Shown here one piece after another: positions 20,858 to 43,371 of a stretch of 64,000 nt of DNA. Position 1 is the stretch's first letter. Every line of letters starts with the position of its first letter. The translations under genes and the position numbers were made by a program. The stretch lies in the NCBI RefSeq assembly GCF_988242995.1, contig NZ_OZ547043.1; one strand, written 5' to 3'. Under the pieces are notes generated by a model. That model did no database searches and was not told the DNA's origin. It saw nothing but the letters and a program-made list of their open reading frames with translations.

Positions 20858-20952
20858 GAATAGATGTTCAAGCCTTACGCTAATGTAACTTCTATACCTT
20901 TCCTCTTCGTTCCGAACCGTGTACACCATCCGTTATTTGCGGAGGTGAGGCT

Positions 20953-22895: not shown

Positions 22896-23110
22896 ACGGG
22901 TCCTTTCCGGCGATCCGACAGGTTACGGGGCGGCGACCTCGCGGGTTTTCGCTATTTATGAAAATTTTCCGGTTTAAGGCGTTTCCGTTCTTCTTCGTCA
23001 TAACTTAATGTTTTTATTTAAAATACCCCCTGAAAAGAAAGGAAACGACAGGTGCTGAAAACGAGCTTTTGGGCCTTTGTCGTTTCCTTTCTCTGTTTTT
23101 GGCCGTGGAA
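22896..23110. promoter_or_regulatory. Phage cos site (cosQ-cosN-cosB); cosN GGGCGGCGACCT at 22928-22939
   Basis: Matches the lambda cohesive-end 12-mer and downstream Nu1-binding repeat region, immediately upstream of nu1. Confidence 0.85.
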
Positions 23111-23116
23111 TGAACA

Positions 23117-23636
23117 ATGGAAGTCAACAAAAAGCAGCTGGCTGACATTTTCGGTGCGAGTATCCGTACCATTCAGAACTGGCAGGAACAGGGAATGCCC
23201 GTTCTGCGAGGCGGTGGCAAGGGTAATGAGGTGCTTTATGACTCTGCCGCCGTCATAAAATGGTATGCCGAAAGGGATGCTGAAATTGAGAACGAAAAGC
23301 TGCGCCGGGAGGTTGAAGAACTGCGGCAGGCCAGCGAGGCAGATCTCCAGCCAGGGACTATTGAGTACGAACGCCATCGACTTACGCGTGCGCAGGCCGA
23401 CGCACAGGAACTGAAGAATGCCAGAGACTCCGCTGAAGTGGTGGAAACCGCATTCTGTACTTTCGTGTTGTCGCGGATCGCAGGTGAAATTGCCAGTATT
23501 CTCGACGGGATCCCCCTGTCGGTGCAGCGGCGTTTTCCGGAACTGGAAAACCGACATGTTGATTTCCTGAAACGGGATATCATCAAAGCCATGAACAAAG
23601 CAGCCGCGCTGGATGAACTGATACCGGGGTTGCTGA

Positions 23637-23662
<26 letters not shown>
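23117..23662 (+). CDS. nu1: Terminase small subunit
   Basis: 181-aa ORF near-identical to lambda Nu1. Confidence 0.95.
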
Positions 23663-27343
<3,681 letters not shown>

Positions 27344-27363
<20 letters not shown>

Positions 27364-28663
27364 TCTCCCGCATATTTCCAGCATGGCCTTTAATGAGCCG
27401 CTGATGCTTGAACCCGCCTATGCGCGGGTTTTCTTTTGTGCGCTTGCAGGCCAGCTTGGGATCAGCCGCCTGACGGATGCGGTGTCCGGCGACAGCCTGA
27501 CTGCCCAGGAGGCACCCGCGACGCTGGCATTATCCGGTGATGATGACGGACCACGACAGGCCCGCAGTTATCAGGTCATGAACGGCATCGCCGTGCTGCC
27601 GGTGTCCGGCACGCTGGTCAGCCGGACGCGGGCGCTGCAGCCGTACTCGGGGATGACCGGTTACAACGGCATTATCGCCCGTCTGCAACAGGCTGCCAGC
27701 GACCCGATGGTGGACGGCATTCTGCTCGATATGGACACGCCAGGCGGAATGGTGGCGGGGGCATTTGACTGCGCTGACATCATCGCCCGTGTGCGTGACA
27801 TAAAACCGGTATGGGCGCTGGCCAACGACATGAACTGCAGTGCAGGTCAGCTGCTTGCCAGTGCCGCCTCCCGGCGTCTGGTCACGCAGACCGCCCGGAC
27901 AGGCTCCATCGGCGTCATGATGGCTCACAGTAATTACGGTGCTGCCCTGGAGAAACAGGGCGTGGAAATCACGCTGATTTACAGCGGCAGCCATAAGGTG
28001 GATGGCAATCCTTACAGCCATCTTCCGGATGACGTCCGGGAGACACTGCAGTCCCGGATGGACGCAACCCGCCGGATGTTTGCGCAGAAGGTGTCGGCAT
28101 ATACCGGCCTGTCTGTGCAGGCTGTGCTGGATACCGAGGCTGCAGTGTACAGCGGTCAGGAGGCCATTGATGCCGGACTGGCTGATGAACTTGTTAACAG
28201 CACCGATGCGATCACCGTCATGCGTGATGCACTGGATGCACATAAATCCCGTCTCTCAGGAGGGCGAATGACCAAAGAGACTCAATCAACAACTGTTTCA
28301 GCCACCGCTTCGCAGGCTGACGTTACTGAGGTGGTGCCAGCGACGGAGGGCGAAAACGCCAGCGCGGCGCAGCCGGACGTGAACGCGCAGATCACCGCAG
28401 CGGTTGCGGCAGAAAACAGCCGCATTATGGGGATCCTCAACTGTGAGGAGGCTCACGGACGCGAAGAACAGGCGCGCGTTCTGGCAGAAACCCCCGGTAT
28501 GACCGTGGAAACGGCCCGCCGCATTCTGGCCGCAGCACCACAGAGTGCACAGGCGCGCAGTGACACTGCGCTGGATCGTCTGATGCAGGGGGCACCGGCA
28601 CCGCTGGCTGCAGGTAACCCGGCATCTGATGCCGTTAACGATTTGCTGAACACACCAGTGTAA
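27344..28663 (+). CDS. C: Head protease/scaffold C (GTG start; Nu3 nested in frame)
   Basis: 439 aa from (V)TAELRNLPHISSMAF..., GGAGGAGG RBS; matches lambda gpC. Confidence 0.9.
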
Positions 28664-28672
28664 GGGATGTTT

Positions 28673-29005
28673 ATGACGAGCAAAGAAACCTTTACCCATT
28701 ACCAGCCGCTGGGCAACAGTGACCCGGCTCATACCGCAACCGCGCCCGGCGGATTGAGTGCGAAAGCGCCTGCAATGACCCCGCTGATGCTGGACACCTC
28801 CACCCGTAAGCTGGTTGCGTGGGATGGCACCACCGACGGTGCTGCCGTTGGCATTCTGGCGGTTGCTGCTGACCAGACCAGCACCACGCTGACGTTCTAC
28901 AAGTCCGGCACGTTCCGTTATGAGGATGTGCTCTGGCCGGAGGCTGCCAGCGACGAGACGAAAAAACGGACCGCGTTTGCCGGAACGGCAATCAGCATCG
29001 TTTAA
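28673..29005 (+). CDS. D: Head decoration protein D
   Basis: 110 aa [27 protein letters not shown]... matches lambda gpD. Confidence 0.95.
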
Positions 29006-29025
29006 CCTTACCCTTCATCACTAAA

Positions 29026-29048
29026 GGCCGCCTGTGCGGCTTTTTTTA
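29026..29048 (+). terminator. Hairpin plus T-run between D and E
   Basis: GGCCGC-CTGT-GCGGCC followed by TTTTTTT. Confidence 0.4.
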
Positions 29049-29060
29049 CGGGATTTTTTT

Positions 29061-29315
29061 ATGTCGATGTACACAACCGCCCAGCTGCTGGCGGCAAATG
29101 AGCAGAAATTTAAGTTTGATCCGCTGTTTCTGCGTCTCTTTTTCCGTGAGAGCTATCCCTTCACCACGGAGAAAGTCTATCTCTCACAAATTCCGGGGCT
29201 GGTAAACATGGCGCTGTACGTTTCGCCGATTGTTTCCGGTGAGGTTATCCGCTCCCGTGGCGGCTCCACCTCTGAATTTACGCCGGGATATGTCAAGCCG
29301 AAGCACTTAGCATGA
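29061..29315 (+). pseudogene. E: Major capsid gene E, 5' fragment (codons 1-84) truncated by the satellite insertion
   Basis: MSMYTTAQLLAANEQKFKFDPLF...GYVKPKH then two foreign codons and stop; the rest of E resumes at 40394. Confidence 0.9.
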
Positions 29316-29468
29316 CTTTCTGAGGCTTTCGTGTAGTTGCTGGTTTTTACACTTAATCTTTTGATAATAAAGAATAAGTTTATCTGGTGCTTTCACTGAA
29401 TTTTCCTCGTTATCTGTGTGTTGCAATCATCTCTGTATTGCAGCTTGTATTGCTTTTTGGGGCTAAAA

Positions 29469-30704
29469 ATGGCTGGCGAGAACAAACTGAGCGACAAAGC
29501 GCTTAAAGGATATCTGGGGAAACCCAGAGAAAAGCAGATCACCATTGCTGATGGAAAGGGGCTTTCTATTCGTGTGAGTACTAAAGGGGCTGTGAGCTTT
29601 GTTTTCTTCTACAGGTTAGCAGGTGGCCGGGCTGCTCCGGTCTGGCTAACGTTGGGTAAATATCCTGATATGTCACTCAAACAGGCAAGGGAAAAGCGCG
29701 ACGAGTGCCGTGGTTGGTTGGCTGACAAACGTGATCCGCGTATCCAGATTAAGATTCAGGCTGAAGAACGCTTAAAGCCGGTTACAGTGGAGGATGCACT
29801 AAATTACTGGTATGAAAATTACTGTAAGGTGCGTCGTAAAACTCATGCTGTAACGCTTGGCAGATTTCGAAAGCATATCTTTCCCTATATCGGTCATTTG
29901 CCCGTAAATGACACTCACCTATATGAATGGCTGGACTGTTTTGACCGAATTAAACGTAATGCACCAGTTATGGCGGCGTATGTTTTTTCTGACACTAAAT
30001 TAGCTCTTCGTTTTTGTCGGGTACGCCAGTACGCGACGTGTGATGCTTTAAAGGATTTGCGCATGAGTGATGTGGGGCAGATTGCAGGTAAGCGGGATCG
30101 GGTTCTGGATGAAGCCGAACTCGGCCAGCTCTGGAAGGCAATTTTTGTCGAGCCTGATTTAAAACTAATGTCTGAATACACGCGAAAAATGTTTGTGCTT
30201 TGTACAGTATTTGGATGTCGAATGAGTGAAGCCCGATTATCAGAATGGAGCGAATGGGATCTCGAAAGTTGGGTTTGGACTGTACCAAAAGATCACTCAA
30301 AAACTGGTGTTGAAATCGTCAGACCAGTACCTGAAATTCTACGACAGTGGGTAACGGATGTTCACGAAGAGACAAAACATACTGGTTATGTGCTGGGAAG
30401 TCTGCGAATTAGAGAAAGCGTAAGCAAGATTGGGGGGAAAATCGGTAAACGTTTGGGCCATGAAAAACAATGGTCACTACACGACCTTAGAAGAACGCTA
30501 TCTACTCATCTAAGTGATCTCGGTGTTGAATTTTATGTAGTAGAACAACTGTTAGGCCATGCGCTACCTGGCGTGGCAGGTGTTTACAACCGGAGTAAGT
30601 TTATGGCTAAAAAACTGGATGCTCTGGAACTCTGGACTACATATCTCAATAGCATCGCAGCTGCTGATTCAAAAGTGACAATCCTCAAACAAAAGGTTGG
30701 TTAA
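29469..30704 (+). CDS. Satellite tyrosine integrase (P4-type)
   Basis: From MAGENKLSDKALKGYLG...; catalytic region HDLRRT...LLGH...VYNRS; located at the element's left end. Confidence 0.85.
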   Translation: MAGENKLSDKALKGYLGKPREKQITIADGKGLSIRVSTKGAVSFVFFYRLAGGRAAPVWLTLGKYPDMSLKQAREKRDECRGWLADKRDPRIQIKIQAEERLKPVTVEDALNYWYENYCKVRRKTHAVTLGRFRKHIFPYIGHLPVNDTHLYEWLDCFDRIKRNAPVMAAYVFSDTKLALRFCRVRQYATCDALKDLRMSDVGQIAGKRDRVLDEAELGQLWKAIFVEPDLKLMSEYTRKMFVLCTVFGCRMSEARLSEWSEWDLESWVWTVPKDHSKTGVEIVRPVPEILRQWVTDVHEETKHTGYVLGSLRIRESVSKIGGKIGKRLGHEKQWSLHDLRRTLSTHLSDLGVEFYVVEQLLGHALPGVAGVYNRSKFMAKKLDALELWTTYLNSIAAADSKVTILKQKVG

Positions 30705-30705
30705 C

Positions 30706-30933
30706 ATGAAAAAAATGGCAATTGTTGATAAAAAGGGTCTGGAGTACATTCCTAACATTGACCGAATGATCCGTGAGAAAGAATGTCGGGAGCTAACCAC
30801 TCTTGCGAACAGCACACGCTGGAAGCTGGAGAAGGAAGGAAAATTTCCTAAGCGGATCAAGATTGGTTCCACTGCTGTTGCATATCGTCTTTCAGAAGTG
30901 CAGGCATGGATTCGAGGTGAGTGGGTAGTTTAA
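30706..30933 (+). CDS. alpA: AlpA-family HTH regulator/excisionase
   Basis: 75-aa ORF directly after int; the ORF-track start at 30697 is TTG, ATG at 30706 preferred. Confidence 0.7.
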   Translation: MKKMAIVDKKGLEYIPNIDRMIREKECRELTTLANSTRWKLEKEGKFPKRIKIGSTAVAYRLSEVQAWIRGEWVV

Positions 30934-31002
30934 ATTATCTCAGAATAAAATATTATGAATTACTGATTTGAGAATTTGTACTCAAATCAGTAATAACATT
31001 CT

Positions 31003-31539
31003 TTATAAGAGATTAAATCCAAATAAAGAGTAATCATATACCGGGGTGCATTGCATCCCACTGAATATGCTGATGTTTTTTTCTGTTTCTATCCTTTTTT
31101 CAATAAGTTGTTGTATATTTTTACAGTACAATTTGTGTGTGATGTTATTATCGTAAGCCTGATATAGCAACGTCAATGTTGATGCTATGAAACATGCAGA
31201 AAGAAAATGAACTAGTACATGTGAGCGTTTTTTGGTTGTCCATGATGCATTCGCTTGTGAAATATAAATCATTCTGAGAATGATAATGATGATAGACAGT
31301 AACAGACCACTCAATAAAATAAGTATTGGGTTTGCGTATTTAATTAATGGTTGAGAGCAAAAAACTATTATAGCTCCTGTGACTGCGTATGAGAAAAAGG
31401 AGTAATTAAACTTCTTACTCCTTCTCTCAAGTATTTTAATTTCATCTTGTGTGGGGGTTTTAGATGCCTCTAATATAAGTTTATTAAATGTTTCTGTTAT
31501 CTTGTTTTTTGTGTTTGTGGCTATTTTTTTTAGATTCAT
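31003..31539 (-). CDS. Hypothetical AT-rich membrane protein (2-3 predicted TM helices)
   Basis: 178-aa ORF with hydrophobic segments AVTGAIIVFCSQPLI and ILILLSGLLLSIIIIIL; convergent with alpA. Confidence 0.5.
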   Translation of the reverse strand: MNLKKIATNTKNKITETFNKLILEASKTPTQDEIKILERRSKKFNYSFFSYAVTGAIIVFCSQPLIKYANPILILLSGLLLSIIIIILRMIYISQANASWTTKKRSHVLVHFLSACFIASTLTLLYQAYDNNITHKLYCKNIQQLIEKRIETEKNISIFSGMQCTPVYDYSLFGFNLL

Positions 31540-31889
31540 AGCATTCTAACTCCCTTAACTTATTTATTACTTTCTCTTTATGATAAGAGAGGGGAATGAC
31601 TTGGTAAAGTGATTTGTCATTAATAATGATAATCCTTGCGATAAATATTTCTGCAAGTTATTTACCTGTTTGTTGCTATCTTGTTAAGCGTTGGGTGTGG
31701 TTTATGTTTGGAGCGACTTTATTTAATCGTGATTTTATGGATTTATATTTATATCCTGTAAGATAAGCGCATGTTAGTTCAGGAGTAGTGTCAGATAAAA
31801 TTATTCGGAGTAGAACTACCTTTTCTGTTTATTGCCAGTATTTACATAGCAATGCGCCGTAGTTACTCACATCACGGCGCTGATACTAA

Positions 31890-32195
31890 TTATTCAGATT
31901 CTTTGGCTTTACGCCGCTGGAGTTCTTCACGAGCGACGGCTACGAGTTGCCCGATTTCCTCCGCTGCCTTGATACCGATTTGTTCGACCTTAGCTAAGGC
32001 ATCCAGTGAAGACACGAGGGGATTTTCTCCGCTTCCTTCTGCCTGGCGGCGGGCGATTTCACCGCGCATGGCGGTTACGATAAATCCGGCATTGCTTTCA
32101 CCGTCCAGCTTAACGGATTCCATCCCTTGCATAACATCTAGTGGGACTCTGACAGTTGTCAGTTGTGATTTTGCGTTTTTGTTAGCCGTTGCCAT
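31890..32195 (-). CDS. Putative ribbon-helix-helix regulator (candidate satellite repressor)
   Basis: 101-aa ORF; TVRVPLDVMQGMESVKLDGESNAGFIVTAMRGEIARR fits a beta-strand/helix/G-x-S/helix RHH pattern; divergent from the primase operon. Confidence 0.4.
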   Translation of the reverse strand: MATANKNAKSQLTTVRVPLDVMQGMESVKLDGESNAGFIVTAMRGEIARRQAEGSGENPLVSSLDALAKVEQIGIKAAEEIGQLVAVAREELQRRKAKESE

Positions 32196-32256
32196 TTCTG
32201 AAACTCCTAATCATCGGTGTGTTTCAGTATACACAAAAAAAGAAATACAAAAAGCC

Positions 32257-32292
32257 TTGACGTGTGTTTCATGCGCTCATAACATGAAACAC
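32257..32292 (+). promoter_or_regulatory. Promoter (TTGACG-17 nt-TAACAT) overlapped by a palindromic operator
   Basis: Inverted repeat GTGTTTCATG (32264-32273) / CATGAAACAC (32283-32292) straddles the -10 element. Confidence 0.5.
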
Positions 32293-32385
32293 ACCGAAAG
32301 GATTGTTGAAATACAAAGAGCAACGCCCCGCAGTGCTGGGAACACATACGGGGCGTCTAACCAACAACGTAAACTAGGAGCCGTT

Positions 32386-32583
32386 ATGGTTGCTGTAAAT
32401 CATATACCACACCTTGTACACACACAAACGGCCTTTGTGTGGCGTTTTCTGGCACTGAGTGCCGGAGAATCTCAAATCATCCACGTAACCGCCTGGACGG
32501 AACGCGAAGCGCGTAGCCGTTGCCCGTCCGGTTGTGTTGCTGTATTCGCTGCAAAAATCCGCCAGGGAGTGAGTCATGCTTAA
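32386..32583 (+). CDS. Small hypothetical protein, first gene of the satellite rightward operon
   Basis: 65-aa ORF with AGGAG RBS 5 nt upstream of ATG 32386; the longer ORF-track frame from 31852 is rejected. Confidence 0.45.
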   Translation: MVAVNHIPHLVHTQTAFVWRFLALSAGESQIIHVTAWTEREARSRCPSGCVAVFAAKIRQGVSHA

Positions 32584-32761
32584 AACCTTCCGTGTATTTG
32601 CCCGAGCTGTTAACCCAATAGGCCACACAATTGGTATCGCTCAGAATGTGAAGGCTGTTAATGTTCAGACGGCTATTGCTGCGGTGAGAAGCGAATCATC
32701 AGAATATGGCTTATCACAAGTCATTATTTCAGCAGTGTATGAATTAAAAGAGGTGCATTAA
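32576..32761 (+). CDS. Small hypothetical protein
   Basis: 61-aa ORF; start overlaps the preceding stop (ATGCTTAA). Confidence 0.35.
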   Translation: MLKTFRVFARAVNPIGHTIGIAQNVKAVNVQTAIAAVRSESSEYGLSQVIISAVYELKEVH

Positions 32762-32952
32762 TGCAGGAAATCACATTACACGAAGCCGCTGAACGTGCGC
32801 ACCAGACAGAAATTATTTGCCGCCTTCTTGAGGTATATCCGAACAAAATTACAGATGCTGATATATCCGCGCTGGCGAGCCTACTGGCGCGCCTTTCGGG
32901 AAGTGTCGCTAGTTTCCTCATTGAGGAAGAAAGTAAGCTGGTGGGGGATTAA
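32761..32952 (+). CDS. Small hypothetical protein
   Basis: 63-aa ORF translationally coupled to neighbours. Confidence 0.35.
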   Translation: MQEITLHEAAERAHQTEIICRLLEVYPNKITDADISALASLLARLSGSVASFLIEEESKLVGD

Positions 32953-33174
32953 ATGAATACAGAACGGGAAGTCTTTTTTAAATTGTTAGCATGTGCAGAA
33001 AGTTCATTAACTTTAAATAATTCAGCAAAAGCAATATTAAATATGTGGCTTGATTGCATAAATGACAATGAAGATGCAAATATTGCTTATGGCCTGTTGT
33101 CACTTATTGATGAATCAGCAGAAAAACTCAATGACGCAATAAATAGTGCCCTGCTATCAAATAAGTCGAGTTAA
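32953..33174 (+). CDS. Small hypothetical protein
   Basis: 73-aa ORF, AT-rich. Confidence 0.35.
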   Translation: MNTEREVFFKLLACAESSLTLNNSAKAILNMWLDCINDNEDANIAYGLLSLIDESAEKLNDAINSALLSNKSS

Positions 33175-33191
33175 GTCGAGGAATAAATAAT

Positions 33192-33491
33192 ATGGAAATG
33201 AAAAATTCTGGCTTTATTGCCAGCGGCCCCGCTCGGCCTGAATTTATGAACGGCGATATTTACCGCGATAAATACGGCGGCACGGTAACGATTAAAGGCG
33301 TGGCAGAACGGCGCATCACTTACCGCCGTGAGGGGTATAGCTATGACTGCGTGATGCCTGTTTATCAGTTCCGGCGTGATTTTTCCCTGGTATATGCCGC
33401 ACCCCGCAGTAAGCCCATCAGCAGGGAAAAAGCGCGGGGAAACATCCAGAAAATGAAAAGCATGATTAACGCATTCAGGGGCAAAAAATGA
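33192..33491 (+). CDS. Hypothetical protein
   Basis: 99-aa ORF ending at the primase start. Confidence 0.4.
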   Translation: MEMKNSGFIASGPARPEFMNGDIYRDKYGGTVTIKGVAERRITYRREGYSYDCVMPVYQFRRDFSLVYAAPRSKPISREKARGNIQKMKSMINAFRGKK

Positions 33492-35239
33492 AACTGGCAC
33501 CGAACTTAAAAAAACAGCCACGCGACAGACTGACAGAGGTAATCATCTTTGCAGGTAGTGATGCGTGGAGCCATGCGAAAGAGTGGCGGGAATGGGCGGG
33601 TAAACATATTGCCGCCGACGATGTGCCGCCTGTCGTGCTGGCTGATGAGCAACTGAAAAATATCACCGATTACCGGATCATTGATGAAGATCGTCAGTGT
33701 GTGCGTGTTTACCGCGCAGGACATATCACAGAGCACAGCATGACGCAGATTGTTACGTTACTGGCTGTGGCTGGAGTGAAGACCGTACACGAATACGCGG
33801 GGATTACTGACACCAGCCCAGTGGATTTATCCGAGCAGTTGCCGCGACTCAAAGAGGAATGCGAGCGTGGGGAAAGTCTGGTGCTTAATCTTCCGACGAA
33901 GCAAAAGGCGCAACTTTCACAGATGGCAGACAGTGAACGTGCACAACTACTTGCCGATCGCTTTGATGGTGTGTGTGTTCATGCAGAAAGTGAAATCGTC
34001 CACGTATGGCGCGGCGGGGTATGGTGTCCGGTCAGCACAATGGAGCTGAGCCGCGAAATGGTGGCGATCTATTCAGAGCACAGGGCCACGTTCAGCAAAC
34101 GTGTAATCAATAACGCCGTGGAAGCGTTAAAAGTTATTGCCGACCCCATGGGGGAGCCGTCCGGTGATTTGCTACCGTTCACTAATGGTGTGCTTAACCT
34201 GAAAACGGGGGAATTTTCTCCGCACTCGCCGGAGCACTGGAGCACCACGCACAATGGCATTGAGTACACGCCACCAGTAGCAGGGGAAAACATCCGCGAT
34301 AATGCGCCAAATTTCCATAAATGGCTTGAACATGCTGCAAGAAAAGACCCGCGCAAGATGATGCGTATATGTGCCGCGTTATACATGATTATGGCGAACC
34401 GCTACGACTGGCAGATGTTCATTGAGGCCACCGGAGACGGGGGAAGCGGTAAGAGTACATTTACCCATATTGCCACCCTGCTTGCTGGCAAACAGAACAC
34501 CGTAAGCGCGGAGATGACATCACTCGATGATGCAGGAGGGCGCGCGCAGGTTGTCGGGAGTCGTCTTATCGTCCTTGCCGATCAGCCGAAATATACGGGG
34601 GAAGGCACGGGCATCAAGAAAATCACGGGAGGCGATCCCGTTGAAATTAACCCGAAATATGAGAAGCGATTCACGACGATAATAAGGGCGGTGGTACTGG
34701 CAACCAATAACGACCCGATGATCTTTACCGAACGGGCCGGAGGTGTGTCACGCCGTCGGGTGATTTTCCGGTTCGACAACATTGTAAGGGAGGACGAAAA
34801 AGACAAGGAATTACCGGAAAAGATAGCGGCAGAAATCCCCGTAATTATCCGCCGCTTGCTGGCTAATTTTGCTGACCCTGAAAAGGCACGGGCTTTATTA
34901 CTGGAACAGCGTGACGGTGATGAAGCTCTGGCAATAAAGCAGCAAACGGATCCGGTTGTTGAGCTTTGCGCGGCGCTGGAGTTTCTGGAGGAAGCTCGTG
35001 GGCTAATGATGGGCGGTGGTGGTGACACCGTGAAGTACACGACCAGAAACAGCCTTTACCGTGTCTATATGGCCTTCATGGCATACACAGGAAAGGGGAA
35101 ATGTTTGAGCGTGAATGAGTTCGGAAAGGCTATGAGGTCAGCGGCGAAAGTTTACGGATATGAATATATTACGCGAAAAGTTAAGGGAGTCACGCAGACC
35201 AACGCAACGACTACTGATGATTGCGATGCGTTTTTATAA
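33488..35239 (+). CDS. Primase/SF3-helicase replication protein
   Basis: 583-aa ORF with Walker A (TGDGGSGKST) in the C-terminal half and primase-like N-terminal half; followed by iterons. Confidence 0.8.
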   Translation: MKLAPNLKKQPRDRLTEVIIFAGSDAWSHAKEWREWAGKHIAADDVPPVVLADEQLKNITDYRIIDEDRQCVRVYRAGHITEHSMTQIVTLLAVAGVKTVHEYAGITDTSPVDLSEQLPRLKEECERGESLVLNLPTKQKAQLSQMADSERAQLLADRFDGVCVHAESEIVHVWRGGVWCPVSTMELSREMVAIYSEHRATFSKRVINNAVEALKVIADPMGEPSGDLLPFTNGVLNLKTGEFSPHSPEHWSTTHNGIEYTPPVAGENIRDNAPNFHKWLEHAARKDPRKMMRICAALYMIMANRYDWQMFIEATGDGGSGKSTFTHIATLLAGKQNTVSAEMTSLDDAGGRAQVVGSRLIVLADQPKYTGEGTGIKKITGGDPVEINPKYEKRFTTIIRAVVLATNNDPMIFTERAGGVSRRRVIFRFDNIVREDEKDKELPEKIAAEIPVIIRRLLANFADPEKARALLLEQRDGDEALAIKQQTDPVVELCAALEFLEEARGLMMGGGGDTVKYTTRNSLYRVYMAFMAYTGKGKCLSVNEFGKAMRSAAKVYGYEYITRKVKGVTQTNATTTDDCDAFL

Positions 35240-35252
35240 AAAATGGCAATGG

Positions 35253-35482
35253 TTATCTACCTTGTCTACCTGACTGAAAGAAAATACTTTTATTTCAATG
35301 TATTAATGCAGGTAGATAACTATTTTTCACTGTCTACCTGTTATCTACCTTATCTACCCATTTTTGTAGACAGGTAAGGAGACGGGTAGAGATGAGGTAG
35401 ACAGCTATTTGGGGCTGTCTACCTCCCTGAAACCCGCGCCATTACTGGCCTGATAACTAATCAGGTAGACAAGGTAGACAAG
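35253..35482. repeat. Satellite replication origin iterons (at least 10 copies of GGTAGACA/TGTCTACC in both orientations)
   Basis: Dense cluster of the 8-bp core in a 230-bp non-coding stretch just 3' of the primase gene. Confidence 0.75.
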
Positions 35483-35528
35483 GTGGTGGTGCACAAAAAA
35501 CTTTTTAAACGAGGGGGTAAAAATAAAA

Positions 35529-35786
35529 ATGCACACATCAGGAAAACTGAACAAACATATAAAGCCACATTACCGCGCCCTTGATATGGCTGAACACTGG
35601 CTAAGGGTGGCGATTAAGGCAATAGACCGCAACGCCGGGGAAGGATACGCGAAAGCACATCCCGAACTGATAAGCGCATTCATGACAACGGCGGCTGCAA
35701 ACTTTGCCACGCTGACCGAACGGGAGATTGCTGAAGCGGAGGAAGTGACAACAATCAATATTAAGTCCGGAGAGCAGGCAGCATGA
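35529..35786 (+). CDS. Hypothetical protein
   Basis: 85-aa ORF upstream of and coupled to ssb. Confidence 0.4.
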   Translation: MHTSGKLNKHIKPHYRALDMAEHWLRVAIKAIDRNAGEGYAKAHPELISAFMTTAAANFATLTEREIAEAEEVTTINIKSGEQAA

Positions 35787-36232
35787 CGGCGCAAATATCA
35801 GTTTACGGGCGGTTGGTGGACGACCCGCAGACAAAACAGACCAGCAAGGGCACCCCCATGACGCTGGCGCGTATGGCGGTATCACTGCCCTGCAGTCAGT
35901 CGGATGACGGTCTGGCGACGTTGTGGTTATCTGTCCTGGCGTTTGGCAGACAAGCCGACGCGCTGGCAAAGCATCACAAAGGCGAACTCCTGAGCGTGGC
36001 GGGTAACATGCAGATGAGCCAGTGGACTGGACAGAACGGCGAAACGCGGCAGGGCTGGCAGGTTATCGCAGACAGCGTAATCAGTGCGCGATCGGTGCGA
36101 CCGGGCGGCAAAAAAGGCCAACAGGGGCAGGCTACTGACGCACTGAACAGAGCAAAACAACAGGCAGATCAGCAAGGAAGCCAGCCACCAGAGGGAGATA
36201 ATGAGCAATGGGGAGATGATATCCCGTTTTAA
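35783..36232 (+). CDS. ssb: Single-stranded DNA-binding protein
   Basis: 149-aa ORF with Gly/Gln-rich linker and acidic C-terminal tail ending DDIPF. Confidence 0.8.
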   Translation: MTAQISVYGRLVDDPQTKQTSKGTPMTLARMAVSLPCSQSDDGLATLWLSVLAFGRQADALAKHHKGELLSVAGNMQMSQWTGQNGETRQGWQVIADSVISARSVRPGGKKGQQGQATDALNRAKQQADQQGSQPPEGDNEQWGDDIPF

Positions 36233-36448
36233 ATATTGCCAATAAAAAAAGCCGGAAAAAATAAATTTTCCGGCATGCTACATAAATCCCGACCAAAGGG
36301 AGTGAAGATATTAACACTAATTGTCCGCACTGAAGTTGTCACCCCAAAACTTTATACAACATTGCACTCGGTTGCATGTGTTCGCATGACAAATATCGGT
36401 GATAGCATATATCCACAATTATTTTTAATGAATGCAAAGAGGATGCGT

Positions 36449-37489
36449 ATGGTTGATTTATATTCGCCTACTCAGCTTGTACAGGTAGTTAATGCTGTAG
36501 ATGTACAAAAACAACTAAATGCGTTATTTACCAGTTTGTTTTTTACTCGCTCGGTAATGTTTGAATCGCGCGATATTATTCTTGATACAATCGACGATCC
36601 AAATATCCCAATTGCAGCGTTTTGTTCTCCTATGGTGGGTAGTAAAGTTTCACGTGACGAAGGGTACGAATCAAAAACAATTCGTCCAGGCTATATGAAG
36701 CCGAAAAGCAGCATTGATCCAAATAAGTTAGCTGTGCGCCCTGCTGGTGTGTCACCTGAGCAATACAATGCTTTTGGGGCGCGTAATATTAAAGTTAAAC
36801 AGGCGATTGTAAATCAGGCTAAAGCTATTCGTGCACGTATTGAATGGCTTGCTGTTCAGGCAATCACAACGGGGAAAAATATCATTGAGGGCGATGGTAT
36901 TGAACGTTATGAGCTGGACTGGAATATAAAACCACAAAATATCATCACTCAGTCTGGCGGTACTGAGTGGTCAGGTAAGGATAAAGAAACTTTTGATCCA
37001 AATGATGATATTGAGAGCTACGCAGAATTTAGTGAGGGCGTCACTAATATCATCATTATGGGTGGTAATGTATGGAAGAAATACCGTTCATTCAGAGCGA
37101 TAAAAGAGGCTTTGGATACCCGTCGTGGTTCTAATTCCGAACTGGAAACGGCCCTTAAAGACCTTGGTGATTCGGTGAGTTTTAAAGGGTATATGGGCGA
37201 TGTTGCGATTGTTGTTTACAGCGGGCGTTATACCGACGAGGACGGAACAGAAAAACATTTCCTTGATCCTGATTTGATGGTGCTTGGCAATACGGCTCTT
37301 CAGGGGATTGTCGCCTATGGCGGTATTCAGGATCCGGAGCTAATCCGAATGGGGCTGACTAAAGCCGAACTTGCACCGAAAAACTATATTGTGCCTGGTG
37401 ATCCGGCTATTGAATATGTGCAGACACATTCAGCACCACAGCCAATACCGGCCCGCATCAATCGTTTTGTTACCGTTCGCATTGGCTAA
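36449..37489 (+). CDS. Satellite-encoded major capsid protein homologue (lambda E-like)
   Basis: 346 aa; aligns with lambda E along its length (e.g. IITQSGGTEWSGKDKETFDPNDDIESYA vs NITQSGGTEWSKRDKSTYDPTDDIEAYA; DTRRGSNSELETALKDLG; GDVAIVVYSG). Confidence 0.8.
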   Translation: MVDLYSPTQLVQVVNAVDVQKQLNALFTSLFFTRSVMFESRDIILDTIDDPNIPIAAFCSPMVGSKVSRDEGYESKTIRPGYMKPKSSIDPNKLAVRPAGVSPEQYNAFGARNIKVKQAIVNQAKAIRARIEWLAVQAITTGKNIIEGDGIERYELDWNIKPQNIITQSGGTEWSGKDKETFDPNDDIESYAEFSEGVTNIIIMGGNVWKKYRSFRAIKEALDTRRGSNSELETALKDLGDSVSFKGYMGDVAIVVYSGRYTDEDGTEKHFLDPDLMVLGNTALQGIVAYGGIQDPELIRMGLTKAELAPKNYIVPGDPAIEYVQTHSAPQPIPARINRFVTVRIG

Positions 37490-37498
37490 GGGGGAGCA

Positions 37499-37840
37499 AT
37501 GGCTACTCATTACACTGAACTCATGGCTGGCACTGAAGCACTGGTGACTACGCTGGGGATATTTTCAGCTAATAAAGGGGTAATTCCTGCATTTACGCCA
37601 CTGATGCAGGAAGATGCAACAGGTGCACTGGTGGTATGGGATGGTTCGAGCGTAGGTAAAGCGGTTTATGTTTCCGCTGTACAAATCGACACCGCGAAAA
37701 AAACACAGGCTCAGGTCTATAAGACAGGTGTCTTAAATGTTGATGCTCTGAACTGGCCTGAGTCTGTTAAAGAACTGTCAGTAAAGGTTGCAGCGTTTGT
37801 TGGCTCAGGTATTTCTGTTCAGCCGCTGGCTCGTGTGTAA
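37499..37840 (+). CDS. Satellite-encoded head decoration protein homologue (lambda D-like)
   Basis: 113-aa ORF; TPLMQEDATGALVVWDGSSVGKAV...VYKTG parallels lambda [22 protein letters not shown]...FYKSG. Confidence 0.7.
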   Translation: MATHYTELMAGTEALVTTLGIFSANKGVIPAFTPLMQEDATGALVVWDGSSVGKAVYVSAVQIDTAKKTQAQVYKTGVLNVDALNWPESVKELSVKVAAFVGSGISVQPLARV

Positions 37841-37851
37841 AGGGGGATACA

Positions 37852-38235
37852 ATGCAGAATGATTACAATGACCTTAAGCCAATTGCCGAAATGATGTACC
37901 CGAATCCAGCTGTAGAGGAATTAAAAGCTATCGCTGACAAAATGTGTTTAAGCGAGCGCCTTGTTGATATGAATCAGGTGATGGAAATTACAACCCTGAG
38001 TCGTCGTACACTGCTAAACCTTGAGGCTAGTGGAGAGTTCCCGGAGCGTGTGCAGGTTACGGAAGGGCGTAAGGCCTGGTATTTAAGTGAAGTGATCGAC
38101 TGGATAAATAATATTCCTCGCGCTTCTGAATATTGCCGCGTACCTGTCCCAAAAAAGCCAGATGCGGCGCTATGCCTCAAGATTGAGCGTGTACGCCGCA
38201 ATGCACGGGATGGTCGCTATAAGCTGATTGGTTGA
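37852..38235 (+). CDS. Winged-HTH (AlpA/MerR-excisionase-like) protein adjacent to satellite cos
   Basis: 127-aa ORF; C-terminal MEITTLSRRTLLNLEASGEFPERVQVTEGRKAWYLSEVIDWINN HTH; strong RBS; ends 20 bp before the cos-homologous region. Confidence 0.6.
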   Translation: MQNDYNDLKPIAEMMYPNPAVEELKAIADKMCLSERLVDMNQVMEITTLSRRTLLNLEASGEFPERVQVTEGRKAWYLSEVIDWINNIPRASEYCRVPVPKKPDAALCLKIERVRRNARDGRYKLIG

Positions 38236-38257
38236 TGAAATTAGGGCCCGCTCTGGC

Positions 38258-38465
38258 TGGCGGGTCCTTTCCGGTGATCCAGAACGTTACGGGGCGTCAG
38301 GCGCGCAGATTCTTGCTATTTATGACAATTTTCTGCGATTTGCCGTTTCCGTTCTTCTTCCTCGTAACTTAGTGTTTTTACTAGAAATACCCTCTAAAAA
38401 GAAAGGAAATGACAGGTGCTGAAAACAGGCTTTTGGGTCTCCGTCATTTCCTTTCTCATTTTTAT
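38258..38465. promoter_or_regulatory. Satellite cos site homologous to the prophage cos (variant cosN GGGCGTCAGGCG at 38292-38303)
   Basis: About 210 bp alignable with 22896-23110; flanking and downstream repeat segments conserved, 12-mer differs at 5 positions. Confidence 0.75.
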
Positions 38466-38718
38466 CTAAAAGTAAGCATCGAGGCCACCCCAAATGCTTA
38501 TAGAGGTTATTGTGTCACTATGCGTACTGTTCAGGATTTAAAGTAGCAAGACATCTAGTTGCTTGCAGTTTTGGCGAATGATGTGAGGTTCTCTATAACA
38601 GATAATGTAACAAGTTACTGATATATTCTGTTATGGTTGACTTTAAATTTTGTTGCTCCTTCAATGAATTATTGAGGGGTAAAAATTAGGCGTGATAAGA
38701 ATCGATCACGCCTATTGT

Positions 38719-40035
38719 TTATCTTGAAGAAATTTTAGGCAGGCTTTTTAAAAATAAATCTTTATTTCTACTTGCATCAGTTAAAAGTGTTAGGAATATT
38801 TTATCTGTAGGAGTGCATGTGCTCTTGTTTAACAGTAATTCACCAAGTTTCTGTAATCGAGAGAATTGCCCATCCTCTTGGATTCTGTGACGAAGTGTAC
38901 TATCATTTTTAATAACATCAACAAATGCAGAAACCATGTTAATATCAAAGTGTTCAAACATTTCCAATATTAAAGGTGCAGCCCCATTTGAATAAAAATT
39001 CTTCCTTCCATACTGATAGCTGAAACCACGATGGCCAACATAAGTTTTTGTAATGGCTGAAACAAATTCAACAATATTATCTTCAGGGACGAAACTCGAG
39101 AATGGTAATAATTGGGTTACGATTTTTTCCTCTTCTGACCAATTATCTAAAGACTCGGTGAGTTTATTAATGAGAGGCTCAATAATAACTTTTCGGGATG
39201 CAGGGCTAATATACATCAGTCCATCTACCAATAGTATGAATTGTTGTGCCTTCTCTATCTTATTGTTGTTTCCTGAAACTAAATACTTGTCAAATTGTTG
39301 GCCGACTTTACGTCGGTCGTCTTTTGAAAGTAATGTCCATAAAATAGGTGCGCAAAATTCAATGTTGTTTCTGAGTTCACTTGATATATTGGATGAGCAG
39401 TATGTGCCAAAAAAACGAGAGGATAATTCACTGATATAAATTGCAGGTAGATCTGAAAAGGCTTGCTTAACTGCCAGACTATTTTTATTAAATGTTGCCG
39501 AATCCATTTCTGAAAGATATGTAGTTATATCTATGATGGCTGGTGGAAACTCTTTAGAAAGAACGTATTTATTACAATCATTAATCAGGTTCACTACTTT
39601 GATTAAATCAGGGTCGCTACTTTGTGGATGTCCACCAAATAGATTCCTGGTTTCTCTAGCTTGTTGTAATAGTTTCTGACCTTCTCGATCGATAACTCCT
39701 ATTTTAAATGCTCCATCTATTAAATCAAAGTCGCTCACATAATCCTGAAAATCTTCATACGTTTTAATTTCTTTTTTTTGTTTACACTCTTTGTTGAATA
39801 GATCTAGGCTACGATGAATTATCTTTTGACGTAAATCATCAACTACAGCATTCCAGTAAGCAGTGATGGCACTTCTATAACCTTTTACAGGAAGAACTCT
39901 TATTGCTTCTGAAATATATGGGCAGTCAACTACATCATGCCTCACAGTTGAGAGCGCAGTTTGTAACAATGTAACTTCTGTAGAGTCTAGTGGAGTTGGC
40001 TGCACTAAATGAGAACTTATCTCTGTACCCTTCAT
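38719..40035 (-). CDS. AT-rich 438-aa protein with HEPN-like R-x5-H motif (candidate anti-phage/abortive-infection protein)
   Basis: Single long ORF in the satellite's variable end; RNLFGGH at residues 130-136; no ATPase motifs; own AT-rich promoter region 40036-40150. Confidence 0.6.
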   Translation of the reverse strand: MKGTEISSHLVQPTPLDSTEVTLLQTALSTVRHDVVDCPYISEAIRVLPVKGYRSAITAYWNAVVDDLRQKIIHRSLDLFNKECKQKKEIKTYEDFQDYVSDFDLIDGAFKIGVIDREGQKLLQQARETRNLFGGHPQSSDPDLIKVVNLINDCNKYVLSKEFPPAIIDITTYLSEMDSATFNKNSLAVKQAFSDLPAIYISELSSRFFGTYCSSNISSELRNNIEFCAPILWTLLSKDDRRKVGQQFDKYLVSGNNNKIEKAQQFILLVDGLMYISPASRKVIIEPLINKLTESLDNWSEEEKIVTQLLPFSSFVPEDNIVEFVSAITKTYVGHRGFSYQYGRKNFYSNGAAPLILEMFEHFDINMVSAFVDVIKNDSTLRHRIQEDGQFSRLQKLGELLLNKSTCTPTDKIFLTLLTDASRNKDLFLKSLPKISSR

Positions 40036-40393
40036 TTCAGGATTTTCCTATTCTTTTCCATTTTTCTACTCTATTGAATTTGAAAAAGATATCAAGTTCG
40101 TTCTTGCCAGTTTTAAGTGGAAAATTTGATGTTACCTTATTGAGATAAGGCAGTTCTCTATAACCTATTGTTATTAATTATTTTTATTTTTTTCCAATTC
40201 AGATGTTTAGGGCTAAGAAGTTAAGTGAGAGTTCACAGCAAAACTGCTTCTAGTTCCTCACCGAGGAGCAAAAGGTTAAGACAGCGTACTTTGTATTGCA
40301 CAATGTATTGCAGAACCTTCTTTCGAAAGCTACAACAATCAATTTTATATTGAAAATTCAATCATATCCTTTCGATATTGACTCATATAACCC

Positions 40394-41179
40394 AAGCATG
40401 AGGTGAATCCGCAGATGACCCTGCGTCGCCTGCCGGATGAAGATCCGCAGAATCTGGCGGACCCGGCTTACCGCCGCCGTCGCATCATTATGCAGAACAT
40501 GCGTGACGAAGAGCTGGCCATTGCCCAGGTCGAAGAGATGCAGGCAGTTTCTGCCGTGCTTAAGGGCAAATACACCATGACCGGTGAAGCTTTCGATCCG
40601 GTTGAGGTGGATATGGGCCGCAGTGCGGCCAACAACATCACGCAGTCCGGCGGCACGGAGTGGAGCAAGCGTGACAAGTCCACGTATGACCCGACCGACG
40701 ATATCGAAGCCTACGCGCTGAACGCCAGCGGAGTGGTGAATATCATCGTGTTTGATCCGAAAGGCTGGGTGCTGTTCCGTTCCTTCAAAGCCGTCAAGGA
40801 GAAGCTGGATACTCGTCGCGGCTCTCATTCCGAGCTGGAGACAGCGGTGAAAGACCTGGGCAAAGCGGTGTCCTACAAGGGGATGTATGGCGATGTGGCC
40901 ATCGTCGTGTATTCCGGACAGTACGTGGAAAACGGCGTCAAAAAGAACTTCCTGCCGGACAACACGATGGTGCTGGGGAACACTCAGGCACGCGGTCTGC
41001 GCACCTATGGCTGCATTCAGGATGCGGACGCACAGCGCGAAGGCATTAACGCCTCTGCCCGTTACCCGAAAAACTGGGTGACCACCGGCGATCCGGCGCG
41101 TGAGTTCACCATGATTCAGTCAGCACCGCTGATGCTGCTGGCTGATCCTGATGAGTTCGTGTCTGTACAACTGGCGTAA
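40394..41179 (+). pseudogene. E: Major capsid gene E, 3' fragment (codons 83-341)
   Basis: From KHEVNPQMTLRRLPDEDPQ... to ...DEFVSVQLA, matching lambda E downstream of the break. Confidence 0.9.
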
Positions 41180-42660: not shown

Positions 42661-43371
42661 TGTGCACAGAAAACCCCCAGCTAGGCTGGGGGTTCCGGAA
42701 AGCTTTCAGCTTTGAGCCAGTTATTAAAACCCCTTTTGATTTGTTAAAACACCTTGCGGTCTGGCAACTGCAAGTGTCAAACAAGAAATCAAAAGGGGGT
42801 CCCAATGGGGAACGAAAAGAGCTTAGCGCACACCCGATGGAACTGTAAATATCACATAGTTTTTGCGCCAAAATACCGAAGACAGGTGTTCTACAGAGAG
42901 AAGCGTAGAGCAATAGGCAGTATTTTGAGAAAGCTGTGTGAGTGGAAAAGCGTACGGATTCTGGAAGCTGAATGCTGTGCAGATCATATCCATATGCTTG
43001 TGGAGATCCCGCCCAAAATGAGCGTATCCGGGTTTATGGGATATCTGAAAGGGAAAAGCAGTCTGATGCTTTACGAGCAGTTTGGTGATTTGAAATTCAA
43101 ATACAGGAACAGGGAGTTCTGGTGCAGAGGGTACTACGTCGATACAGTGGGTAAGAACACGGCGAAGATACAGGATTACATAAAGCACCAGCTTGAAGAG
43201 GATAAAATGGGAGAGCAGTTATCGATTCCCTATCCGGGCAGCCCGTTTACGGGCCGTAAGTAACGAAGTTGGATGCAAATGTCAGATCGTGTGCGCCTGT
43301 TAGGGCGCGGCTGGTAAGAGAGCCTTATAGGCGCATTTGAAAAACCTCCGGCTATGCCGGAGGATATTTAT
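42661..43371 (+). mobile_element. IS200-family insertion sequence (about 711 bp)
   Basis: Left-end hairpin AAACCCCCAGCTAGGCTGGGGGTT, Y1-type transposase gene, right-end hairpin CCTCCGGC-TAT-GCCGGAGG; interrupts U. Confidence 0.85.
42805..43263 (+). CDS. tnpA: IS200 transposase TnpA (Y1 HUH)
   Basis: 152 aa from MGNEKSLAHTRWNCKYHIVFAPKYRRQ... with HxH (HIHML) motif. Confidence 0.9.
   Translation: MGNEKSLAHTRWNCKYHIVFAPKYRRQVFYREKRRAIGSILRKLCEWKSVRILEAECCADHIHMLVEIPPKMSVSGFMGYLKGKSSLMLYEQFGDLKFKYRNREFWCRGYYVDTVGKNTAKIQDYIKHQLEEDKMGEQLSIPYPGSPFTGRK

Follow-up and report, generated by a model that had tools for sequence, protein, structure and literature searches.

The phage satellites closest to the locus analyzed here are those that carry a coat protein gene of their own. 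In E. coli PICIs, capsid and decoration homologues have been known since 2018 from EcCICFT073, a Gram-negative PICI that is mobilized by lambda-type cos helpers, lies at a chromosomal site beside phoQ rather than in a prophage gene, and carries the pair (c1499, capsid, structure 3BQW; c1500, head decoration) after its replication zone, without portal, protease, or terL. Deletion of c1499 or c1500 left both island transfer and lambda interference unchanged, and lambda co-packaged it only as DNA of phage size (Fillol-Salom et al. 2018, PMC6092414). Because these deletions are without phenotype, a structural role of the pair, if it has any, is dispensable in EcCICFT073. In contrast, loss of ccm in SaPIbov5 raises the helper phage titer 10^6- to 10^7-fold; Ccm (cos-phage capsid morphogenesis protein), a satellite-encoded HK97-fold coat homologue that is about 23% identical to the helper coat protein and relies on the helper for the rest of the head machinery, turns prolate heads into small isometric T=4 heads (PMC6893505). 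PmCI172 from Pasteurella multocida, likewise a Gram-negative PICI, whose only head gene is a coat homologue, has a Mu-like myovirus as helper, and its heads are small by electron microscopy (PMC6092414). Members of the cf-PICIs (e.g., EcCIEDL933; Alqurainy et al. 2023) share the int-alpA-primase left half of classical PICIs and encode, besides their own coat protein, portal, protease, terS, terL, and head-tail connectors, so that only tails come from the helper. Finally, Tommasini, Mageeney, and Williams (2023, PMC10111431) described the helper-embedded phage-inducible chromosomal island (HE-PICI) Eco567.11capE (here 11capE) in prophage 50icd of E. coli NRG857c, as well as a site group, E:Phage_cap_E:80, with 201 instances. 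Mitomycin induction led to precise excision of 11capE in 42 to 98% of the composites, with E restored, as measured by qPCR and deep sequencing, while virions of 50icd/11capE were not detectable to the authors (PMC10111431).

The window, i.e., the whole stretch of 64,000 nucleotides that was analyzed, holds a lambda-like prophage at tRNA-Arg(TCT) with a satellite of 11,093 bp (core to core) inserted in its gene E, in the same orientation: int, alpA, the primase gene, and the coat gene all lie on the late-operon strand. A sequence-only reading that preceded this analysis had stated that the satellite interrupts the helper's E, and the junctions bear this out, since E is split after codon 82 (crossover at K81/H82) and the rejoined halves (29061-29306 plus 40400-41179) encode 341 amino acids that are 98.8% identical to lambda E. 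The junction features, with the crossover cores placed by comparing the junctions with lambda E, are as follows.

29061..29315, + strand: 5' fragment of helper E, codons 1 to 82, then Leu-Ala-stop from satellite DNA
29301..29305, + strand: attL crossover core AAGCA at codons K81/H82 of helper E
29434..29453, + strand: doubled attP arm motif of HE-PICIs, TGTATTGCAgctTGTATTGC, about 131 bp inside attL
40292..40311, + strand: second copy of the doubled attP arm motif, about 85 bp before the attR core
40394..40398, + strand: attR crossover core AAGCA
40400..41179, + strand: 3' fragment of helper E, codons 83 to 341

There are exactly two occurrences of the doubled TGTATTGC pattern in the window, where 0.04 would be expected by chance; the published distances of such motifs from the attP center in HE-PICIs are about 81 bp on the upstream side and about 132 bp on the downstream side (PMC10111431). 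For the E site group, Supplementary File 1 of the same work gives "agccgaagca", "aacccaagca", and "aagca" as identity blocks (PMC10111431).

Directly adjoining the satellite, the helper provides intact versions of the head genes that the satellite is without (PHROG matches; exact match for cosN).

22928..29005, + strand: helper head-gene block, comprising
22928-22939, + strand: helper cosN, exact match
23117-23662, + strand: Nu1, terminase small subunit
23637-25562, + strand: A, terminase large subunit
25762-27363, + strand: B, portal
27344-28663, + strand: C protease/Nu3 scaffold
28673-29005, + strand: D, decoration

The helper tail gene U is interrupted by an IS200-family element, and the copy in the window therefore probably makes no infectious particles alone.

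The satellite itself shows the hallmarks of a Gram-negative PICI as defined by Fillol-Salom et al. (2018, PMC6092414): it falls within 10 to 20 kb, carries int, alpA, and pri-rep with a presumed origin just 3' of pri, is mostly unidirectional, and is without lysis or tail genes. Its gene order also follows the overall succession of the four zones of HE-PICIs (Integration, Bro, Replication, Late), running from int and alpA through small ORFs that include YlcI/YnfO to DUF4222, the primase gene, iterons, and SSB, and ending with coat, decoration, HTH, and cos. The genes outside the capsid pair are the following.

29469..30704, + strand: tyrosine integrase, P4 type, HE-PICI clade (PHROG 1 at 7e-64; 99.3% identical to the 11capE integrase)
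30706..30933, + strand: AlpA regulator/excisionase (PHROG 2790; 100% identical to 11capE AlpA)
33488..35239, + strand: P4-family primase, replication zone (PHROG 864 at 3e-161; TIGR01613)
35250..35430, no strand: iterons (direct-repeat families D1 and D5) just 3' of the primase gene, presumed satellite replication origin
35783..36232, + strand: single-stranded DNA-binding protein, SSB (PHROG 44 at 2e-37)
37852..38235, + strand: second AlpA/excisionase-type HTH protein, 127 amino acids (PHROG 2790 at 1e-49)
38255..38460, + strand: cos-like site with a cosQ-like box, a variant cosN 12-mer, and cosB-like DNA (blastn and alignment to helper cos)
38719..40035, - strand: cargo gene of low G+C content, 438 amino acids (PHROG 27609 only)

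PICI origins at the position matching that of the iterons have been described (PMC6092414). With Int, AlpA, a P4-type primase, iterons, and SSB all present, the initial view of the element as a phage satellite stands. So does its statement that portal, protease, and terminase are missing: none was the best PHROG match of any of the 15 satellite ORFs searched (annotated genes 29306-40393), the nearest signal being a weak secondary match of one integrase ORF to a terminase-large-subunit PHROG (E 8e-07), beneath its integrase match. The wider set of cf-PICI genes (portal, protease, terS, terL, and connectors) was likewise absent from the best PHROG matches of these 15 ORFs. A P4-like satellite is not indicated either, as there were no PHROG matches for sid, psu, and delta, and in Rfam no immunity RNA of the P4 type (C4/isrK) reached the gathering score in the satellite; its P4-type features are limited to the integrase and the primase.

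Compared with 11capE, the satellite is nearly identical in Int (99.3% over 411 amino acids), AlpA (100%), the coat protein (99.7%), the decoration protein (99.1%), the HTH protein (100%), and SSB (95%), and the two share the integration site in gene E, the orientation, the att core, the doubled attP motifs, and the variant cosN. The primases, however, are just 48% identical, which indicates that the replication module has been exchanged. Further differences concern the cargo, which is DUF262+HEPN in 11capE and the 438-amino-acid protein here, and the helper, which resides at icd in the case of 11capE and at tRNA-Arg(TCT) in the window, where it also carries the IS200-family insertion in U that the 11capE helper does not have. 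Other tRNA-Arg helpers are listed as well, e.g., Eco112.58.R (PMC10111431). The satellite is thus a mosaic variant of the published 11capE, and the discovery value of the locus is small: the element has been published together with its site of integration and the coat gene it carries, which the sequence-only reading had missed, and the gene pair was known in E. coli PICIs. What is new here is the satellite-only lineage of the pair, its strong purifying selection, and the occurrence of a 98.6%-identical pair in non-embedded PICIs.

The capsid pair consists of two genes separated by 9 nucleotides between the stop of the first and the start of the second, both assigned by homology, Pfam, and solved structures.

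36449..37489, + strand: satE, satellite major capsid protein, 346 amino acids, lambda E family (HK97 fold)
37499..37840, + strand: satD, satellite head decoration protein, 113 amino acids, lambda D/phage 21 SHP family

satE starts with ATG behind the ribosome-binding site AGAGGA, and a promoter scan of the 216-bp gap upstream of it found no convincing sigma-70 promoter. BLASTP aligns SatE with the rebuilt helper E from end to end at 42% identity (349 columns, E=1e-85) and with lambda E at 42.4% (E=6e-87); the alignment with E is nearly collinear, with 12 gap positions in 349 columns. SatD and helper D agree at 38% of the positions in 106 columns (E=1e-17, BLASTP), and with lambda D the identity is 38.5% over 78 columns. 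The 40 to 50% full-length identity that had been estimated by eye for both proteins therefore holds for E, whereas D lies just below that range. In both cases the homology extends over the full length rather than being confined to short motifs, with Pfam Phage_cap_E covering residues 12 to 343 of SatE (E 1e-41) and HDPD residues 3 to 103 of SatD (E 5e-15); the PHROG matches are PHROG 29 (major head protein) and PHROG 49 (head decoration), respectively. Among solved structures, SatE matches 3BQW best (E 2.7e-121), followed by lambda gpE (7VI9), and SatD matches 1TD0/1TD3 (SHP) and 1C5E/7VII (gpD). The fold of SatE is settled by the 3BQW crystal structure of a 55%-identical homologue together with the cryo-EM structures of gpE; an AlphaFold2 model built from a 5-sequence alignment reached a mean pLDDT of 32, and no structural argument was taken from it. 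Both ORFs are unbroken and equal in length to their copies in four other genomes, so that the genes are neither truncated nor frameshifted, and they form the intact "late-zone" capsid module of an HE-PICI. Moreover, dN/dS across lineages (dS up to 1.3) is 0.04 to 0.08 for satE and 0.06 to 0.10 for satD: the module is under strong purifying selection.

To place the pair among its relatives, we compared it with 50,697 phage genomes, in which the closest matches reached 42.3% identity for SatE and 40% for SatD (47% for the EcCICFT073 coat protein). The EcCICFT073 proteins are closer than any phage protein, at 55% (c1499) and 54% (c1500), and the PICI proteins share signature blocks that are not present in phage E. 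Judged by these comparisons, the satE/satD pair belongs to a satellite-only lineage without members among sequenced phages. Its gene order, E then D, is opposite to that of lambda, D then E. A recent capture of the module from the helper was also considered and rejected, since identity to the helper protein is no higher than 42%, the genes stand in the opposite order, and no phage comes closer. For similar reasons it is highly improbable that the genes are a functionless relic of captured helper genes, as the silent c1499/c1500 deletions might suggest: the low dN/dS contradicts this, the ORFs are intact and of constant length in every copy examined, module DNA at ≥80% coverage is spread over 394 genomes, and a lineage that stands apart from all sequenced phages in both sequence and gene order is not a recent capture.

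The distribution of the module bears on a second possibility, namely that it is a dedicated backup that exists because the satellite breaks E, with SatE replacing gpE in the un-excised composite (suggested in PMC10111431). Among the late genes of Gram-negative PICIs, capsid genes are indeed the most common, HE-PICIs insert in E more often than in any other target, and the module is co-oriented with the late operon and would therefore be transcribed in place of E. However, whereas the attL junction in E was found in 172 of 5,426 complete E. coli genomes, module DNA at ≥80% coverage was found in 394 (about 7% of complete E. coli genomes have the lineage), and at least 222 of these 394 are without the E junction. 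A chromosomal PICI at abgR/smrA, where no capsid gene is broken, encodes coat and decoration proteins 98.6% and 96.5% identical to SatE and SatD; in another at cspD/clpS, the values are 84% and 95%. Given the 98.6%-identical copies in non-embedded PICIs, the module is not an adaptation to the splitting of E, and the idea that it is specific to E-disrupting satellites is ruled out by these near-identical chromosomal copies. The packaging arithmetic points the same way. The unexcised composite of satellite and helper measures 58.2 kb, about 120% of lambda. The upper limit of lambda packaging is roughly 105% of lambda length, and the composite therefore cannot be packaged un-excised, a point also made by Tommasini et al. 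(PMC10111431). Since excision of 11capE restores E, the earlier claim that, in the absence of excision, only the satellite's E-like protein could serve for particles was overstated, and a dedicated backup seems unlikely to us.

Our preferred explanation, in which we place about even confidence, is that satE and satD, the capsid module of this HE-PICI of the 11capE group, provide matched shell and cement for heads of normal lambda size, rather than for size redirection. Expression of the two proteins would be late: as long as the satellite is embedded, the Q-antiterminated late transcript of the helper would read through into their genes, and once the satellite has excised, its own rightward operon, controlled by AlpA, would supply them. 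As a matched shell-plus-cement pair, alone or mixed with gpE/gpD, they would assemble on the helper's portal, protease/scaffold, and terminase into T=7 heads that may hold about four head-to-tail satellite copies of 11.1 kb (44.4 kb). With 11,093 bp per satellite, four copies amount to 91% of lambda length, and four copies fall within 78 to 105% of lambda length for 57 of the 60 E-site HE-PICIs listed. The module might then be a dispensable supply, or insurance, of coat protein, one that suits a satellite that delays the helper's E without being specific to that case. The clustering near 11 kb fits equally well with one genome per head of about T=3 or with two per T=4 head.

The packaged satellite DNA would be cut at the satellite's own cos, with cutting by the helper terminase assumed. 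A search of the satellite for lambda cosN, exact or with up to two mismatches, found none, while sensitive blastn located a diverged cos-like site whose cosB-like DNA is about 87% identical to the helper's (helper cos at 22860-23125). This site speaks for packaging by a terminase of the lambda type. Its cosN 12-mer, GGGCGTCAGGCG at 38292-38303, differs from the helper cosN at 5 of 12 cohesive-end positions and is common to the satellites of APEC E14033 and 11capE; a shared cos-like stretch of 258 bp was noted by Tommasini et al. (2023, PMC10111431). EcCICFT073 differs from this arrangement in combining a lambda-identical cosN with a different cosB, whereas the satellite has a variant cosN and a helper-like cosB. 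The 127-amino-acid HTH protein is always encoded directly 3' of satD and is 96% identical in the ETEC-2264 PICI. It is tempting to go one step further and to suppose that the particles in which the satellite is transduced have SatE as their actual shell and SatD as their cement, built on the helper's portal, scaffold/protease, terminase, and tails. We hold this to be unlikely, but if it were true, this widespread module would be a "shell-only" intermediate between classical PICIs, which use phage proteins only, and capsid-forming PICIs, and the conserved variant cosN together with the adjoining HTH protein might confer packaging identity on the satellite.

An alternative for a structural role is the one raised by the sequence-only reading, which had pointed to capsid-homologue-based size redirection in cos-type pathogenicity islands: SatE, alone or with gpE, would form a shell too small for the 46-kb helper genome but with room for one or two satellite genomes, as Ccm does in SaPIbov5 and as is suspected for PmCI172. 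Besides the Ccm precedent, a coat homologue in a satellite from which the other head genes are missing is consistent with this, as are the small heads of PmCI172, which also has a coat homologue, and the clustering of E-site HE-PICIs at about 11.1 kb, given that a head of roughly T=3 should hold about 13.6 kb by volume scaling. Yet a lambda head accommodates four satellite copies, and SatE, 42% identical to and nearly collinear with E and paired with a decoration gene, is unlike the more diverged Ccm, which is without a decoration partner. The DNA of EcCICFT073 is packaged at phage size, and loss of its coat or decoration gene affects neither transfer nor interference, in contrast to the large gain in helper titer upon loss of ccm. 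As far as this relative can serve as a guide, the analogy is not supported; since the data come from a 55%-identical relative, they leave size redirection in the satellite's own clade unsupported rather than refuted, and we judge it improbable.

Alternatively, SatE and SatD could be dispensable for satellite particles and serve in interference or defense, to the benefit of host and satellite, either by poisoning or competing in the capsid assembly of the helper or of other incoming lambdoid phages or by acting as decoys for systems that sense capsids. Such a role would explain strong conservation in spite of the unaffected transfer of the EcCICFT073 deletion mutants, and it would fit a lineage divergent from every phage E protein and encoded by PICIs, which often carry such functions and here hold variable cargo in the adjoining slot, e.g., DUF262+HEPN. 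On the other hand, lambda interference persisted without c1499 or c1500, RppA being responsible for it, and a poison subunit has no obvious need for a co-evolving decoration partner. Searches with PADLOC, NCBIfam, and Pfam gave no match that points to a defense role of satE or satD. Interference or defense thus seems an unlikely function of the pair. RppA itself marks a further difference from EcCICFT073: TBLASTN over the satellite and the rest of the window found no RppA homologue (best E 0.2), and RppA had no BLASTP match to the 127-amino-acid HTH protein.

Taken at the level of the lineage, the puzzle is that a matched pair is retained under purifying selection across so many E. coli genomes, yet can be deleted without phenotype in the one model tested. 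A phenotype would most naturally be sought in helper-embedded satellites, since there the coat gene of the helper stays off until the satellite excises.

Downstream of the cos-like site, the cargo gene occupies a variable slot in which related satellites carry DUF262+HEPN or DUF2971 genes; its 438-amino-acid product had no Pfam, NCBIfam, or PADLOC match. The satellite of APEC E14033 has an annotated Icd-like gene, and the segment carrying that gene is replaced in the window.

The 11,093-bp satellite lies between the two halves of gene E of its helper, a lambda-like prophage, with the core AAGCA at 29301-29305 and 40394-40398, and carries its own coat and decoration genes (satE and satD, together the module).

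Features of the helper and the satellite (direction where assigned)
22928-22939, helper cosN, exact GGGCGGCGACCT
After helper cosN, rightward, head genes Nu1, A, B (portal), C (protease)/Nu3 (scaffold) and D, from PHROG matches
29061 (start), 5' piece of helper E; E reading ends after 82 codons
First satellite genes, P4-type tyrosine integrase, then AlpA
After these, leftward, two small genes
After these, rightward, small ORFs, a DUF4222 protein, a P4-family primase, then iterons
35250-35430, the iterons, within the swapped replication module
Between iterons and satE, an 85-aa ORF and SSB
36449-37489, satE, 346 aa, coat protein of the lambda E family
37499-37840, satD, 113 aa, decoration protein of the lambda D family
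After satD, a second AlpA-like HTH protein
38255-38460, cos-like site (cosN equivalent 38292-38303), from similarity to helper cos
38719-40035, minus strand, last satellite gene, low-G+C cargo gene, 438 aa, matching PHROG 27609 only
40400, helper E resumes (3' piece)
42662-43370, IS200/IS605-family element (tnpA 42754-43263; Rfam STnc490 42672-42795)

By BLASTP, the full-length identity of satE was 42% to helper E (E=1e-85) and 42.4% to lambda E; satD was 38% identical to helper D across 106 aligned columns (E=1e-17) and 38.5% identical to lambda D across 78. Profile searches assigned the two proteins to the Pfam families Phage_cap_E and HDPD, respectively; among solved structures, the nearest to satE was 3BQW (E=2.7e-121), followed by lambda gpE (7VI9), and the nearest to satD were phage 21 SHP and lambda gpD. 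Both ORFs are unbroken and constant in length across all copies compared. The sequence-only reading, which had claimed E and D homologues in a satellite devoid of portal, protease and terminase, was therefore correct on both counts: satE and satD are real, their similarity is not confined to short motifs, neither is truncated or frameshifted, and none of the 15 satellite ORFs had a portal, protease or terminase family as its best match in the PHROG search. It was also right that the satellite disrupts helper E, whose halves rejoin to a 341-aa protein; identity to the lambda counterpart is 98.8% for this rejoined E and 98.2% for helper D. The truncated E ORF (29061-29315) has a predicted 84-residue product, E residues 1-82 plus Leu-Ala, which would be translated from late mRNA for as long as the satellite stays inserted.

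The find is a rediscovery of a published system, the helper-embedded phage-inducible chromosomal islands (HE-PICIs) described by Tommasini, Mageeney and Williams in 2023 (PMC10111431), who reported 201 further instances at the E:Phage_cap_E:80 site and whose supplementary table includes E-site satellites in tRNA-Arg helpers, as here. Direct comparison with their 11capE (NC_017634.1, 1199333-1210409) gave identities of 99.3% for the integrase, 100% for AlpA, 99.7% for satE, 99.1% for satD, 100% for the HTH protein and 95% for SSB. With a primase at only 48% identity and a different cargo, our satellite is a mosaic variant of 11capE. The replication module (33488-35430) is swapped between flanking int/alpA and SSB/coat/decoration/HTH blocks that are 95-100% identical. 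The window contains exactly two copies of the doubled signature motif tgTGTATTGCantgTGTATTGCa (0.04 expected by chance), spaced from the attP centre as published. The 438-aa cargo protein had no Pfam, NCBIfam or PADLOC match; its gene occupies a variable slot, filled by DUF262 plus HEPN in 11capE and by DUF2971 in other copies, and because of this location it is a candidate anti-phage gene. Some 400 bp of the Bro/Icd-like regulatory zone (32182-32577) could not be aligned with the APEC E14033 satellite, which is 98-99% identical elsewhere and in which an Icd-like gene is annotated; that gene lacks a clear ORF counterpart in the window.

A coat and decoration pair had been reported earlier in the model E. 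coli island EcCICFT073 (c1499 and c1500; Fillol-Salom et al. 2018, PMC6092414). satE and satD are 55% and 54% identical to these proteins; 3BQW and the EcCICFT073 coat protein (L002:669-1724) are both 351 aa long and agree in the residues of the displayed alignment. A search of 50,697 phage genomes gave lambda E (42.3%) as the top match of satE; the top matches of the EcCICFT073 coat protein and of satD reached 47% and 40%, respectively; PICI coat and decoration proteins are closer to one another than to any phage, and the coat proteins have common sequence blocks absent from phage E proteins. Moreover, the satellite order is coat then decoration (36449-37840), as in EcCICFT073 and opposite to the D-then-E order of lambda (helper 28673-29306). 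Distant phage matches, common PICI blocks and reversed gene order together indicate a satellite lineage rather than a recent capture. The dN/dS values (0.04-0.08 for satE, 0.06-0.10 for satD, at dS up to 1.3) point to strong purifying selection and are inconsistent with decay, making a functionless relic very improbable.

It could be argued that the module is a dedicated backup for the split E. Yet a PICI of ETEC-2264 at abgR/smrA, which differs from our satellite in its replicon and in having its own Nu1-like terS, encodes counterparts of satE and satD at 98.6% and 96.5% identity, and for a PICI at cspD/clpS the values are 84% and 95%. The module is found in 394, and the E'-int junction in 172, of the 5,426 complete genomes of E. 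coli. The module is thus independent of E disruption; its presence in PICIs that leave E intact weakens backup as its reason, which we regard as unlikely. Chromosomal PICIs with the coat/decoration/HTH module encode a 180-aa Nu1-like small terminase (L004 11989-12531; L003 11943-12485), 36% identical to helper Nu1, in the slot that holds the cos-like site and cargo gene in our satellite; a small terminase gene is annotated in some E-site HE-PICIs as well.

The cos-like site has a cosQ-like box and a helper-like cosB region (~87% identity), and its 12-base cohesive-end sequence, GGGCGTCAGGCG, differs from the helper's GGGCGGCGACCT at five positions. Three HE-PICIs, 11capE among them, share GGGCGTCAGGCG unchanged despite variation in the flanking bases (L001 12470 and L006 9753-9875 in the two besides our satellite), and satellite-type cos copies at 99% identity or more were found in 10 of 5,426 genomes. 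The published account of cos mentions a shared 258-bp stretch only (PMC10111431). EcCICFT073 combines lambda cosN with a foreign cosB read via RppA; our satellite is the reverse, with a variant cosN and helper-like cosB, and an RppA query found no Rpp homologue in it.

The suggestion that the module redirects capsid size, like the SaPIbov5 coat homologue Ccm, is not supported by the nearest experimental evidence and is the part of the initial reading with the weakest support in existing data. In the nearest experimental case, EcCICFT073 with a lambda helper, all packaged island DNA was phage-sized; deletion of c1499 or c1500 left lambda interference and island transfer unchanged, and the authors report finding no phenotype for c1499 (PMC6092414). 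Four copies of our satellite amount to 91% of lambda length, and the same multiple comes to 78-105% of it for 57 of the 60 E-site HE-PICIs in the supplement (sizes from PMC10111431), a narrow range that is also compatible with a fixed small head; size redirection nevertheless seems improbable to us. RppA is the source of interference and packaging specificity in EcCICFT073, on which Dokland's review concurs, and we give a low probability to an interference or defence function of the module.

The element's identity, its intact, constrained genes and its cos-like site are direct observations, and the helper encodes every head function that the satellite is missing. On the mechanism that we propose, satE and satD would be expressed late, with the AlpA operon and read-through of the helper late transcript as the two sources; alone or mixed with gpE/gpD, their products would assemble on the helper portal and scaffold into full-size heads of about four satellite copies each, the module having a dispensable role as coat-protein supply or insurance. 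HE-PICI identity is near-certain and the mechanism much less so; we rate the two together at roughly even chances.

Helper and embedded satellite form a composite at tRNA-Arg(TCT) (2814-2892), in which the 3' end of the tRNA recurs as a perfect 47-bp repeat at both borders (2846-2892 and 61065-61111); its total length is therefore 58,219 bp (58.2 kb), which exceeds lambda head capacity. On induction of 11capE, the composite is excised and replicates, after which the satellite excises precisely from 42-98% of the copies (PMC10111431), so E would normally be restored. The claim that particles made without excision would have to use satE is thus overstated. Without satellite and IS element, the helper measures ~46.4 kb. 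Its tail gene U (start 42571) is broken ~90 nt downstream of the start by the 709-bp IS200/IS605-family element, an insertion not present in U of the APEC E14033 helper; the helper is therefore probably tail-defective, and infectious particles from the present composite probably need another lambdoid prophage. A 1,302-aa ORF of unassigned function in the early/nin region (11775-15683; PHROGs 7803 and 16344) and a low-G+C stretch (34-39%) before the lysis genes at 19000-21000, with an AraC-like regulator at 20024-20764, are probably prophage cargo.
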